From Eledone cirrhosa (lineage: Eukaryota), in contig OZ024741.1 of NCBI GenBank assembly GCA_964016885.1, forward strand, positions 306,900,001 to 306,964,000: DNA of 64,000 bases, read 5' to 3'. Both the position numbers and the translations under genes were made by a program. Positions 17,185 through 22,857 of this stretch are shown here, piece by piece (position 1 is the first letter of the stretch; each line of letters begins with the position of its first letter). A model generated the notes under the pieces. It saw only the letters and a list, made by a program, of their open reading frames with translations. It ran no database searches and was not told the origin of the DNA.

Positions 17185-17757
17185 TAGAATAAGGATTTAG
17201 CTGCATGCATGGCTGTATACAGACATATAGTAGAATTTCATATTTCTAATGAAATATGGTATGTTTACAGGTACACATTTAGACAGCCGTAGCCATGCGA
17301 AACGCCGGGACTAATGCCCTCTGGTGGTGTCCAGCAGAAGCAAGGGGGACAATCGTCGATGCATTTCGAACTTAACTGGTTCTCATCAGGACGATCCCTC
17401 CCAAACTTGCGACTGCTGGACTTGTAAACAGGTGAGAATATATGGTTTGCTCGCCTGTGTAAATGAGGTGATTAATCACATTTTCATATGAAGCTGCTTA
17501 AGTTGGCTCACCTTATAATAGAATAGAATTAGGATTTAGCTTCATGCATAGCTGTATAAAGATATGTATTAGAATTTTGTATGTCTAAAGAAATACGGCA
17601 TGTTTACAGGTAAACATTTAGCAATCCGTAGCTATGTGAAACACCGAGGCTAACGCCCTCTGGTGATGTCCAGCAGAAGCAAGGGGGACAATCGTCGATG
17701 CATTTCAAACTTAACTGGTTCTCATTAGGAGGATCCCTCCAACACTTGCAACTGCTA
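17185..17757 (-). mobile_element. Retrozyme-like element: two ~234-bp direct repeats, each with a hammerhead, period 339 bp
   Basis: 17185-17418 matches 17525-17757; HHR motifs at 17352-17395 and 17691-17734. Confidence 0.8.
17352..17395 (-). ncRNA. Minimal type I hammerhead ribozyme (canonical core)
   Basis: Minus strand: atcgtc CTGATGA gaac-cagttaa-gttc GAAA tgca TC gacgat. Confidence 0.9.
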
Positions 17758-18237
17758 TTCTAATGGTTGCATGTTTATATATATATATATATATATATAT
17801 GTGTATATATATATATATATGAGAGTATTGAAGTTTGCTTGAAGCATTGTGGAACAATAAGTAAATATCTTTAAGTCGTTTGGAAGCCTCGACAATGCAA
17901 ATGGGTAAATCTCCGGGTAACAACATCCGGTGGAGGAGAGAGAGATGTAAGTGGGTGTACGTTGAGATGCGTGGTGTGTATGAGATGTGTAGAAGAATGA
18001 AGGAAAGAGTATAAAGGATAAAATAAAAATAACAACACGAGAGAGAGTTACCTTGGGAGAGATTTAATAGTCCCTATATATTTCGGATTCACATCCATCA
18101 ACTGGTGTTTTTTCCGGGGTAAAGGTTGTCTGTCGGACAGGTGCGAAACGCGTCCACCGCTGTTTGTTGTTTTGAACATCTGAAGTATTCGGCGGAGCGC
18201 GCGTGCGCGTGAAATGGGGTCGGTCGGGCAGAGGTCA

Positions 18238-18299
18238 GCGGCCGAATGAGGGAGTGGGGTGGCGACAGCTAGCGCCACCCCACTCCCTCATTCGGCCGC
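18238..18299. repeat. Perfect 27-bp GC-rich hairpin with 8-nt loop
   Basis: gcggccgaatgagggagtggggtggcg-acagctag-cgccaccccactccctcattcggccgc. Confidence 0.85.
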
Positions 18300-18982
18300 A
18301 TATACATATATATATACATATAAATATATACATATATATACACATATATATATACATATATATACACATATATATATACATAAATACATATATTTATATA
18401 CATATTAATATACATATACATAATAATATATATATATATATATATATATATATATATATATATATATATATATATATATATATACACATATATATATATT
18501 CATATTTATATTTATATATATATACATATATATATATTCATATATATATATATATTCATATATATGATTATATTTATATATATACATATATATATATATA
18601 TATAAATATGAACATATATATATATATATACATATTAATATATATATATATATATACATATATACCATTAACTCACGGTTGGGTGTGGATGCATTCATGC
18701 ATATGTGTGTGTCCGCATGTATCTGTGTGTTTCTAAATATATTGTTATATATATATATATATTCATATTTATATATATATATTTTCATATATATGATTTT
18801 ATTTATATATATACATATATATATATATATATATACACATATACATATATACATATATACATATATACATATATACATATATACATATATATATATACAT
18901 ATATATTTGTAGTAAGGTTGCTTCGATGCGTCCATAGGCGGTATGCCGGTTGAGCTCTGTGCTCCTTCGAGGCAGAGTATGA

Positions 18983-19200
18983 TAATATGGAAAACGAAGT
19001 ATCAGTGATGCATCGGAACACAGTTTATTACATATTACAATTGTTTCCCTGGTGAACAACACGAGGTGCGATCTGTTTGTCGATGAACCTCACTCTGGAT
19101 TTGCAAGTTCTTAAGATAGGTCTAGTGATTTCGAAGCAATATTGTAAAACGGAATAAATTGTGTTCCGATGCATCGCTGATTCTTTGTTTTCCATATTAT
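18983..19200. repeat. Short element with ~48-bp terminal inverted repeats
   Basis: ataatatggaaaac..gatgcatcggaacac versus gtgttccgatgcatc..gttttccatattat. Confidence 0.7.
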
Positions 19201-19244
19201 ATACATATAAATATATATATACATATATATATATACATATATTT

Positions 19245-20525
19245 ACTATTGAAAACCAGAATGTACCATCTCTACCATCTCTAACATCAAATTCCATAAG
19301 AACTATGGAATTTACACCTGCAATGTTGCGACGTCACCTTAAGAATAAGCGCAACTATGCCTTCCTTGGTCTTGATGGTGTTACATATCTGCTTCTCAAA
19401 CGTGGTGGGTACTTCCTTTTGCACCAGCTTTCTTTCTTCTTTCAATACTGTCTCAACAATGGTGAGACTCTGGAGCAGTGGAAAACTGCCAGTGTCATTC
19501 CCCTGTTCAAAAAGGGTGACCGCACGTCACCTGTCAACTATCGTCCAGTCAGTCTTACTAGCTGTATTGCCAAACTGATGGAATCCTGTGTCAGAGAAAC
19601 ACTTTGGAACTTCTGGAGCTCTCACAGCCTCATCCGGCCCTCGCAGTTTGGATGTATCCCTAACTCCAGCTGCTGTGATCAGCTTATCGAGTTCCTTGAA
19701 GACATTACCCGGATCACTGAGAGCGGCTCATGGGTGGATGTTGTTTACCTTGACTTCGCTAAGGCTTTTAATTCTGTGCCACACAAAAGACTTATGGTAA
19801 AACTCTCTGCAATGGGTGTGAGGGATGATCTTTTTAACTGGTTGAAATCCTTCATTCTCTGCCGAAAAGAGGTAGTCACGGTTCTAGGACAGCATTCTTC
19901 ACCATATGAGATGTCATCTGATGTACCACAGGGATCTGTTCTTGGTCCCCTTTTGTTTGTGGCATATATTAATGACATAGATGCCAACTTAAAGAATGCC
20001 ACGGTACTGAAATATGCAGATGACATCAAGCTGTACCTTGAAATCAAAAGGACTGATCCTGAAATCTACAACTCTTTCCTACAACCAGACTTGGACACAA
20101 TGCAGCAATGGATCACAGATTGGCAACTGAAGCTGGCTGTGGACAAGTGTACCACCATGCATTTTGGGAGGAAAAATCCAGCGTCCACATACTCCCTCCA
20201 CAACACTGATATCAAGAAGTCCTCTTGTGAACGTGACCTGTGCATTACTGTCAGCAGCGATTTGCGTTGGACAAAGCATGTCTCTAAGATTGTCAAGAAG
20301 GCCGAGGGTGTCTTGGCATTACTCAGCAAAACCTTTGATAGCCGCTCTCCAGCTATCTATTTAAAACTGTATACAGCTATGGTGCGACCACACTTGGAAT
20401 TCGCATCATCAGTCTGGAACCCCTATCTTGCTCAGAACATTGACCTCCTGGAAACTGTTCAGAGATGTGCAACCAAGCGCATACCCTCCAACAGACACCT
20501 ACCATACTATGAACGCCTTGCATGG
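19245..20525 (+). mobile_element. CR1/Jockey-group LINE reverse transcriptase fragment (open frame)
   Basis: NYRPVSLTS, DVVYLDFAKAFNSVPH, VPQGSVLGPLLF, YADD, MVRPHLEFASSVWNP. Confidence 0.9.
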
Positions 20526-20790
20526 ATTCATTCACTCAAGCCTCAATTGTATAGCCATGTCAGTAGAATGAACACTTCATTCTTGCTCTTGTGTTGGCAT
20601 GTGAACAGAATGATACATATATATACATATATATATGTTCTGCTTATCTTGATATATATATATATATATATATATATATATATATATATATATATATATA
20701 TATATATATATATATATATATACACATATATATACATATATACATATCTATATATCTATATATATATAAATGGAATAGAATGAAACGAAA

Positions 20791-21450
20791 TTTCATTTCT
20801 CACTCTTACTTAAATGTAAGTATGTATGTATACGTACATACATATATGTATACAGACGTACAGTAGTATGTATATATATACATACATGCACACATATATA
20901 CATGCACGTATCGGTTTACCGAACATTTATTATAATGCTCATTTTGTTTGTTTGTAAACAAACAAACAGCCCGAATTACGCCGTACAGTGTTTAGGCAAC
21001 CACGTCACCTTTTTGTTCAACACTGACACAGGAACGATGTACTAGTTTAAAGCTTATTAGCTATCGTCAGCATCGTATACCTTCCTGCCAGAATGTTGAA
21101 CCGTCTGAAAGTATATACTTTCCTTATGCATATTAACGGCTGAGCAGCCTAATTTGCATATCGAGTGAGTTCAGTTGGCTGCACGGCACTTGCTTAAATG
21201 TAAGTATGTATGTATACGTACATACATATATGTATACAGACGTACAGTAGTATGTATATATATACATACATGCACACATATATACATGCACGTATTGGTT
21301 TACCGAACATTTATTATAATGCTCGGTTTGTTTGTTTGTAAACAAACAGCCCGAATTATGCCGTACAGTATTTAGGTAACCACATATATGTATGTACGTA
21401 TACATACATACTTACATTTAAGTAAGTGCCGTACTAAGAGTGAGAAATGA
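20791..21450. repeat. Element with ~190-bp direct repeats and an inverted terminal segment
   Basis: 20808-21002 matches 21193-21382; 21383-21450 is inverted relative to 20791-20850. Confidence 0.65.
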
Positions 21451-21834
21451 AAGCGACTACGGAAAATAACTCATCCAAGTATTAGAACAGGGGGAAATAA
21501 CTCACCGGAAGTGATAGTAAATAGACTGATTGGGGGTGCTAGGAACCACATTTTTCAAGTTAGAGATTTTAAACCTCGTCTATTTGCTTCCTTGGCACTT
21601 TTTACATAGGTGTGTAAATTTTCATGTCTGTCCGACCACGTCTACTACCATTTAACCGTGCACAATTGAATTTCAACCACCACCCATTTCACAAATATGT
21701 ATTAGATTATATATATATATACACATATATATATAGGAAGTCGATCGACTTTCGTCAAATCGGACCGAGGGAACAATGTTTCCGTTGGTCTTTCCAATTG
21801 CTAATACTATCTATCGGTCGCAACTCCAGGTAGA

Positions 21835-21956
21835 AGGAGCAACGTGAAATAAAGTGTCTTGCTCAAGGACATAACGCATCGCCTGGTCCAGGAATCGAAC
21901 TCACAACCTTACGATTGCGAATCCAATTCTCTAACCACTCAGCCACACGCCTTCAC
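21835..21956 (-). mobile_element. tRNA-derived SINE head
   Basis: Minus strand: gcgtgtggctgagtggttagag..gagttcgattcc..ccttgagcaagacac. Confidence 0.8.
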
Positions 21957-22284
21957 TAAATATATATATATATATATTCACAATATATATATATATACAC
22001 ACAATATACAATATATATATATATATACACAATATACAATATACAATATATATATATATACACAATATATATATATATACACAATATACAATATACAATA
22101 TATATATATATATATATATATATATATATATATATATATATATATATATATATATATATATATATATATATATATATATATATATATATATATATATATA
22201 TATATATATATATATACACACACAATATACAATATATATATATATATACACACAATATGCAATATATATATATACATATATATA

Positions 22285-22857
22285 TAGAATAATGATTCAG
22301 CTTCAAGCATGGCTGTATACAGGCATGTATTAGAATTTCTTATTTCTAAATAAATGCGGTATGTTTACAGGTAAACATTTAGACAGCCGTAGCCATGCGA
22401 AACACCGGGACTAATGCCCTCTGGTGGTGTCCAGCAGAAGCAAGGGGGACAATCGTCAATGCATTTCGAACTTAACTGGTTCTCATCAGGACGATCCCTC
22501 CCAAACTTGCGACTGCTGGACTTGTAAACAGGTGAGAATATATGGTTTGCTCGCCTGTGTAAATGAGGTGATTAATCACATTTTCATATGAAGCTGCTTA
22601 AGTTGGCTCACCTTATAATAGAATAGAATTAGGATTTAGCTTCATGCATAGCTGTATAAAGATATGTATTAGAATTTTGTATTTCTAAAGAAATACGGTA
22701 TCTTTACAGGTAAACATTTAGCAATCCGTAGCTATGCGAAACACCGAGGCTAACGCCCTCTGGTGATGTCCAGCAGAAGCAAGGGGGACAATCGTCGATG
22801 CATTTCAAACTTAACTGGTTCTCATCAGGAGGATCCCTCCCACACTTGCGACTGCTA
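22285..22857 (-). mobile_element. Second copy of the retrozyme-like hammerhead dimer
   Basis: Near-identical to 17185-17757, offset 5100 bp; HHRs at 22452-22495 and 22791-22834, both with intact CTGATGA/GAAA. Confidence 0.8.

Follow-up and report, generated by a model that had tools for sequence, protein, structure and literature searches.

The window analyzed here, a 64,000-nt stretch of Eledone cirrhosa DNA (GenBank assembly GCA_964016885.1, contig OZ024741.1, positions 306,900,001 to 306,964,000 of the forward strand), contains two short non-coding units with hammerhead ribozyme motifs on the minus strand. We propose, with a probability of about 0.65, that they are two aged units of a genome-wide hammerhead retrozyme, whose monomer circle would be copied by a Penelope-type reverse transcriptase (RT) into nicked (TA)n tracts. 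On sequence-level features, every testable one of which is present, the family is a new member of the non-LTR (non-long terminal repeat) retrozymes, a known class.

Structure of the two units

Coordinates are those of the whole stretch; monomer positions are counted from the start of repeat B, with the predicted cut after position 61. As the first-pass annotation of this DNA had described, four 234-nt repeats occur with a 339-nt period and TA runs lie on both sides of unit 1 and of unit 2; the start-to-start distances of A1, B1, A2 and B2 are 339, 4761 and 339 nt.

17107-17186: (TA)n tract at the 3' end of unit 1, likely insertion target
17185-17757, minus strand: unit 1, 1.69 monomers (B1, spacer, A1) of the 339-nt subfamily
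17185-17418: repeat A1, 234 nt
17419-17523, minus strand: 105-nt spacer of unit 1, identical to 22519-22623 (one per unit)
17524-17757: repeat B1, 234 nt
21960-22286: (TA)n tract at the 3' end of unit 2, likely insertion target
22285-22857, minus strand: unit 2, 1.69 monomers (B2, spacer, A2), 96% identity with unit 1
22285-22518: repeat A2, 234 nt
22624-22857: repeat B2, 234 nt
22458-22796, minus strand: predicted 339-nt monomer from double cleavage of unit 2
22857-22874, plus strand: 18-nt inverted family piece (monomer positions 229-246) at the 5' junction of unit 2

The direct repeats are just the overlap of 1.69 turns of one monomer, and the 105-nt spacer is ordinary monomer sequence and no internal region. 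The 5' junction of unit 1 matches that of unit 2 minus 17 nt (a deletion), and the true start of B is one base later, its first T being part of the small inverted junction piece.

A type I hammerhead was found on the minus strand of all four repeats, with the palindrome AUGCAU at helix/loop III. Its architecture in the window is a helix I of 6 bp, CUGAUGA, a helix II of 4 bp with a 7-nt loop, GAAA and a helix III of 2 bp; helix I of the family hammerhead carries a long extension.

17352-17395, minus strand: hammerhead A1, the sole fully canonical copy of the four, predicted cut between 17358 and 17357
17691-17734, minus strand: hammerhead B1, G5A at 17726, C.C mismatch in helix I at 17731, G.U at 17707
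22452-22495, minus strand: hammerhead A2, core intact, U rather than C at the cleavage position (22458)
22791-22834, minus strand: hammerhead B2, core intact, C.C mismatch in helix I at 22831, G.U at 22807

The motif that the first-pass annotation quoted for every repeat holds letter for letter in A1 and is altered by substitutions in A2, B1 and B2. It had correctly noted G5A in B1 and intact cores in both unit-2 hammerheads, yet A2 has U17 and B2 has a helix I mismatch and the G.U; lesions are thus present in three of the four window ribozymes. In B1 and B2 the G.U, at the base of helix II, replaces the G10.1-C11.1 pair, which has been termed highly conserved (PMC4209133). Calling these hammerheads minimal was a misnomer: the minimal type of PLE (Penelope-like element) terminal repeats (pLTRs) has a helix II of 7-8 bp and a helix I of 4-5 bp, and the helices of 4 bp and 6 bp found here fit the canonical animal type as defined in PMC4209133. 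Under the rule used to call non-LTR retrozymes active, unit 2 formally qualifies and unit 1 does not.

A genome-wide family with two subfamilies

With the window unit as query, the 3.0-Gb genome gave 3,747 candidates, 40 of which were scored. Exact patterns matched 126 times for the core of the 339-nt subfamily, 662 times for a second subfamily and 1,143 times for a common 24-mer, and reversed control patterns gave 0 matches. The hammerhead is therefore not a chance motif, because the tight core patterns stand at 126 and 662 against 0 in the controls and the helices covary. Dividing the exact counts by the exact-match rates in samples (14/80 and 14/45), we roughly estimate that the genome may hold about 4,000 ribozyme-bearing units, spread across many chromosomes. 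On copy number and array structure, the check proposed in the first-pass annotation, the results are 1,143 exact 24-mer matches, copies that are mostly dispersed insertions of one to two units, and one 10-unit array.

The second subfamily has a 321-nt monomer, lies somewhat nearer its own consensus than the 339-nt form and lacks 17 nt that make up one whole predicted hairpin. Each head-to-tail unit, within the 150-450 nt expected of a non-LTR retrozyme (periods 339 and 321), has one type I hammerhead; GC content is 40-43%, below 50%, and the longest stop-free frame in consensus multimers is 68 codons, so the family is non-coding. Among 74 units that cover the ribozyme in 54 loci, one group has three of the four helix II pairs and one helix I pair swapped with pairing retained, and A at position 17; these compensatory changes are inherited from few events and were counted as few. 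Pairing cells reached 92% against 26-49% for slid structures (28 hand-picked units). Of 80 units, 77 have one of C, U and A at position 17, two have G and one has a gap. The active rule holds for 13 of 29 distinct loci chosen for length (15 of 31 rows, two being duplicates). What survives of the self-excising 339-nt family claimed earlier is a genome-wide, non-coding, circularly permuted hammerhead repeat of 321-339 nt; the window-local reading is unsupported in its original form.

As a side observation, seven same-strand ribozyme matches spaced by about 58-106 kb at C1:143,348,607-143,796,120 are probably part of a large segmental array.

Insertion footprints

We pooled the loci of the genome searches, dropped duplicates and excluded 30 PLE loci, leaving 127 loci chosen by query; the first 30 are biased to the window shape, and loci picked on the spacer or the core have the same ends. 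The 3' ends fell into two clusters about 40 nt apart in 105 of the 127 loci: positions 191-205 (28 loci) and 233-250 (37 loci) among 80 loci of the 339-nt form, and the homologous positions 173-191 (23 loci) and 214-227 (17 loci) among 47 loci of the 321-nt form, these positions being blurred by the resemblance to the TA target. The 3' end adjoined (TA)4 in 88 of the 127 loci, against 8.6% of control windows. By contrast with the clustered 3' ends, the 5' ends were ragged and scattered round the monomer, with one of 127 at the cut site. An inverted piece was present in 45 loci, and blocks of at least one unit in 76, the best blocks reaching at most 2.0 units. Since the ends lie within dinucleotide tracts, target-site duplications, which in non-LTR retrozymes exceed 4 bp when they occur, are unreadable.

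PLE insertions are described as partial tandems with an inverted 5'-truncated piece and microsatellite targets (Craig et al. 10.1101/2021.04.23.441226), and a PLE "tail" with two RT start sites or 3' end sites 30-40 nt apart has been reported (Frangieh et al., PMC11167929). The features looked for in a PLE-type insertion (partial tandem, ragged 5' end, inverted piece, two 3' ends, microsatellite target) were all found, and in their pattern the insertion scars of the family match those of PLEs.

At one locus (L148:1207-1241) the 3' end lies inside the ribozyme core (position 34) and abuts a TA run; two such ends occurred among 47 loci.

Circle or linear transcript as template

All 30 loci picked solely on the 24 nt after the cut site run on upstream through it, and exact continuation through the cut site was seen in 902 of 1,143 matches genome-wide, near what mutation alone allows (about 71%, from column values). 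A cut linear monomer is therefore ruled out as RT template, since copies pass the cut site and only 1 of 127 5' ends lies at it. Non-consensus bases were held in common at 32% within an insertion against 12% between loci in a first sample, and at 17% against 6% in a second sample with CpG sites left out. In 37 pairs of upstream and downstream units (225 columns) we found no systematic difference (lowest uncorrected p 0.047), and this absent position effect rules out an LTR-like reading with fixed A and B ends. A length-biased search gave loci of two to three units and one longer array:

C2:83,920,630-83,923,934 (L215:3131-6435): head-to-tail array of 10 units of the 321-nt subfamily, the longest seen

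This array has a ragged 5' end, a normal 3' end and a hint of a five-unit period; a private variant at position 30 occurs in 10 of the 10 units covering the site and in 1 of 68 other units. Taken together, these patterns suggest that a monomer circle was rather probably the template, copied by rolling-circle reverse transcription.

The same family and PLE helper could instead have used an uncut linear multi-unit transcript, with DNA-level duplication renewing the arrays and the hammerhead serving for trimming or RT recognition, an explanation that we regard as doubtful but the strongest of the rivals. It agrees with best blocks of no more than 2.0 units in the 127 loci, with block duplication or conversion in the 10-unit array, and with the window pair, whose A/B differences and 5' junction occur together and which could be a re-copied uncut transcript. 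Most insertions are 5'-truncated, however, so that length would fall with each cycle if it was not renewed, yet among the longest copies two to three units per locus are frequent. Private variants are common to the units of an insertion, with no position effect, and the core and helices were retained through subfamily divergence. Nor was a young homogeneous master array seen, monomer spacing occurring in none of the 100 matches listed of the 126, and in one pair among 100 listed of the 662.

Several observations weigh against the circular template, a ribozyme or current activity. Copies that run through the cut site would arise just as readily from an uncut linear multimer, and plain identity in the second 321-nt sample, array included, was 91.7% within loci against 92.1% between them. 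Within the 10-unit array a deletion is common to units 3 and 8, which are 96% identical, and units 5 and 10 have several variants in common; part of the array therefore grew or was converted at the DNA level. For an anole PLE, unprocessed RNA was the main substrate and hammerhead mutants left insertion in vitro unaffected (PMC11167929), and cleavage was reported in one of nine predicted retrozyme dimers (Li et al. 2026, 10.64898/2026.07.22.740005). An Rfam scan of the window gave no hammerhead among the 150 of 185 matches listed, and neither did a scan of unit 2 (3 rows); the ribozyme call is hence based on motif, pairing and covariation. Intact cores were found in 35 of 74 sampled units, CpG sites being the most decayed, and none of the long units exceeded about 97% identity to consensus. 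When the monomer was compared with the terminal sequence of one PLE family, short weak matches alone were obtained (best E 0.017).

Predicted RNA folding

Folded as circles, the consensus monomers gave z scores of -7.6 and -7.2, and the window monomers -4.5 and -3.7 (60 shuffles each); the 339-nt monomer of unit 2 gave -5.5 as a linear and -4.5 as a circular molecule against shuffles. The predicted circle is highly self-paired, as is expected of a non-LTR retrozyme. The reverse strand folds equally well (circle z -7.7), so the fold score gives no choice of strand. A swapped dimer in which the palindromes pair was modeled in five cases: compared with two monomer folds its predicted energy was lower by 8-10 kcal/mol in four of them and by 2.5 in the other, and it lay 4-15 kcal/mol above the unconstrained minimum; in both window units it was about 9 kcal/mol better than two monomer folds and about 9 above the minimum free energy. 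Cleavage would probably take place in the dimer via the AUGCAU palindrome.

History and state of the two window units

Identity was 93.6% between A1 and A2, 97.0% between B1 and B2, and 87-89% between A and B inside one unit. In the four-repeat comparison 17 sites were position-specific and none locus-specific, and the similarity of units 1 and 2 ends at the TA runs, the outer flanks not being in common. The next best genome locus reached 86-88% identity to the window units (40 scored of the 3,747 candidates). The first-pass annotation had noted that the whole unit occurs twice; most likely, the pair derives not from two separate insertions but from a single old one, whose A and B copies then diverged and which was then copied locally, because of the 17 against 0 sites, the common unusual 5' junction and the unshared outer flanks. 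Such a local copy could have been made at the DNA level, between TA tracts, or equally from an uncut transcript that was copied again; a wider segmental duplication of the region is ruled out, as the similarity ends at the TA runs. We also observed that the spacers (17419-17523 and 22519-22623) differ at 0 of 105 sites, A1 and A2 at 15 of 234 and B1 and B2 at 7 of 234; gene conversion is possible.

Among the sequencing runs listed, none was recorded as RNA, which has no bearing on expression. Contigs of three sequencing runs (kind unrecorded, one sample) were compared with 17190-17775 and included about 2,500 mostly divergent family contigs per run; those free of differences were one at 17190-17334 and one at 17455-17537, and none spans the unit. 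These contigs served neither for copy number nor for validation of the local duplication.

On the local reading of the first-pass annotation, the two window units would actively give rise to a 339-nt circular RNA, which is unlikely. Both unit-2 cores are intact, AUGCAU is present in all four hammerheads, the swapped dimer is predicted to be more stable than two monomer folds by about 9 kcal/mol, and the monomer still folds well. Against these stand G5A in B1, the helix I mismatch and lost G10.1-C11.1 pair in B1 and B2, and U17 in A2. Moreover, the units have 91-94% identity to consensus, and at most three of their eight A- and B-specific variants occur together in any other sampled locus; no offspring of the window units is therefore apparent among the sampled loci. 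Dimers in better condition occur at other places (13 of 29 distinct loci). Being 6-9% diverged from consensus, and with three of the four ribozymes damaged, the two units have little promise as a working source of circular RNA and are ordinary decayed copies.

Relation to Penelope-like elements

The RT-endonuclease (PLE) family of this genome has 69,996 candidates, many with open frames near 714 aa, so autonomous PLEs coexist with the repeat, as expected of a non-LTR retrozyme. A Pfam search of these PLE proteins themselves gave no significant match; look-alikes of the abundant proteins carry GIY-YIG and RVT_1. From its motifs we take this abundant family to be Neptune-like. Its terminal sequence bears a different hammerhead, a few hundred bases past the stop. 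The monomer shows no real similarity to the flanks of the one PLE family examined.

27797-28552, plus strand: C-terminal part of the abundant RT-endonuclease (PLE) family
about 22920-23260, minus strand: broken PLE coding fragment, ending mid-ORF (open reading frame) at the TA run upstream of unit 2
38117-38182, plus strand, and 63803-63869, minus strand: second hammerhead family, with long helix II and UGCGCA palindrome

Upstream of the hammerhead at 38117-38182, at a distance of about 700 nt, is a PLE-endonuclease-like frame (36864-37415), and a TA run follows the hammerhead after about 60 nt; because of this neighborhood it is likely a PLE terminal repeat.

The family repeat could itself be the pLTR of an unsampled coding PLE, its short copies being truncated ends, which we consider very improbable. 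In its favor, the insertion scars are PLE scars, vertebrate retrozymes are related to pLTRs (Li et al. 2026), a PLE fragment oriented like unit 2 is found 76 nt upstream of it, and the probe for PLE coding sequence was just one PLE protein. Occurrence solely as the pLTR of a coding PLE was the outcome that the first-pass annotation set against its own reading, and none of the 127 loci is joined to a PLE ORF; PLE coding sequence was near 8 of them, with no constant orientation or distance. Followed upstream from the ribozyme, the sequence passes round into the 3' part of the monomer itself, with at least one turn in 76 of the 127 blocks. The flanks of family loci had no sequence in common at any set monomer position; they gave 25 pairwise matches, mainly microsatellites or other repeats. 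The window fragment breaks off mid-ORF at a TA run and is absent from unit 1, and was rejected as a partner of unit 2 as a chance neighbor. An ancient origin of the family from a pLTR is likely.

Least probable of all is that the repeat is a satellite, or spread purely as DNA when TA tracts recombined, without an RNA step. The window pair and locus L151 do resemble local duplications, and some of the 10-unit array is duplicated. The polarity of the ends, however, largely refutes such a reading, under which fixed 3' ends, ragged 5' ends, inversions, dispersal over many chromosomes and compensatory RNA-fold changes would be unexpected.

Proposed mechanism

Our preferred reading, in which the circle is the template, would proceed as follows. 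A locus with at least two hammerheads would be transcribed by read-through, and the transcript would cleave itself to 321-339-nt monomers, probably as a swapped dimer via AUGCAU, as predicted from motif, covariation and folding energy. A host ligase would close the monomer into a circle, as we infer from PMC7229834. A PLE endonuclease would then nick (TA)n, and the presumed PLE RT would begin at an internal AU-rich site of the RNA, either about 130 or about 175 nt downstream of the cut, where the 3' ends are observed. The RT would round the circle across the re-ligated cut site and stop at random, often leaving an inverted 5' piece; this pattern is observed, and the circular template would account for it. 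The copies would finally decay neutrally.

We see perhaps an even chance that the scars, thousands in number, are the record of rolling-circle reverse transcription of a hammerhead RNA circle by an enzyme of the Penelope type, starting from two internal sites. If this is true, they are direct genomic evidence for the proposed retrozyme-PLE cycle, and the intact-looking candidate helper ORFs mean that the cycle could be rebuilt in vitro. The value of the finding lies in the family footprints, which make this cycle testable; two subfamilies, offering natural covariation, together with abundant long-ORF PLEs provide a convenient system for distinguishing a circular from a linear template.

Other elements in the window

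19158-20783, plus strand: LINE-type (long interspersed nuclear element) RT fragment between the two units, Pfam RVT_1, E 5e-34
20805-21430: fold-back stretch resembling a miniature inverted-repeat transposable element, with a 160-nt block repeated 384 nt apart at 98% identity
61747-63211: 97-nt tandem array, 15.1 copies, 96% matches
4224-4287 and 52832-52889, plus strand: partial tRNA matches above the Rfam gathering score, possibly heads of short interspersed nuclear elements
10501-11595, 14584-15413, 26328-27462 and 56146-58223: four pieces of an endonuclease-plus-RT LINE family, 83-96% identity
6790-7587, plus strand: 265-codon open frame, whose end presumably resembles a Helitron Rep/helicase N-terminus

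Comparison with known systems

In the window, two hammerhead direct repeats round a short middle superficially resemble plant LTR retrozymes (PMC4918200, PMC7761336). Those have a type III hammerhead, true LTRs and fixed boundaries, whereas the family studied here has a type I hammerhead and 5' boundaries that differ between loci, which separates it from the plant class.

Non-LTR retrozyme units measure 350-390 nt in mussel, 330/350 nt in axolotl and 220-245 nt in coral (Cervera and de la Pena 2020, PMC7229834). Like these animal retrozymes, the Eledone family has a non-coding head-to-tail unit of 320-340 nt with one type I hammerhead and a GC content of 40-43%, a self-paired predicted circle with the ribozyme free, a weak helix III with a palindromic loop, and PLEs in the same genome. 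It differs in being mainly dispersed as insertions of one to two units, without long arrays as a rule, and in a strong (TA)n target bias that keeps target duplications from being read. Its two fixed 3' ends inside the monomer and its frequent inversions at the 5' end do not appear in the retrozyme descriptions compared (PMC7229834). In the published literature searched we found no account of the family or of such scars for a retrozyme; Repbase and Dfam were outside the scope of this search, and the supplements of PMC7229834 and Li et al. may list relatives.

With endonuclease-bearing PLEs the family shares partial-tandem insertions and an inverted 5'-truncated piece (PMC4209133; PMC11167929; 10.1101/2021.04.23.441226), as well as two 3' end sites, an RT start downstream of the hammerhead and microsatellite targets (PMC11167929; 10.1101/2021.04.23.441226). 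Unlike PLEs it has no ORF, the longest stop-free frame being 68 codons, and unlike their minimal type with a long helix II, as at window positions 38123 and 63863, its hammerhead is of canonical size with a 4-bp helix II and an extended helix I.

Animal retrozymes have been proposed as non-autonomous PLE derivatives (Li, Clavereau and Pollet 2026, 10.64898/2026.07.22.740005). Co-occurrence with PLEs and a distribution over monomers, dimers and few multimers are common to those retrozymes and ours, and fit the proposal of PLE mobilization. Their evidence consists of co-distribution and pLTR homology, mainly in vertebrates, with local tandem amplification discussed; here, the PLE link comes from insertion scars, with no pLTR homology to the one PLE family checked. 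For both the mover of non-LTR retrozymes and the circle as template, the published case is built on co-occurrence and on homology of terminal repeats (PMC7229834, PMC7761336, Li et al. 2026), and the Eledone family adds a further line of evidence: the two-site 3' end of PLEs, inversions, (TA)n targeting and read-through of the cut site.

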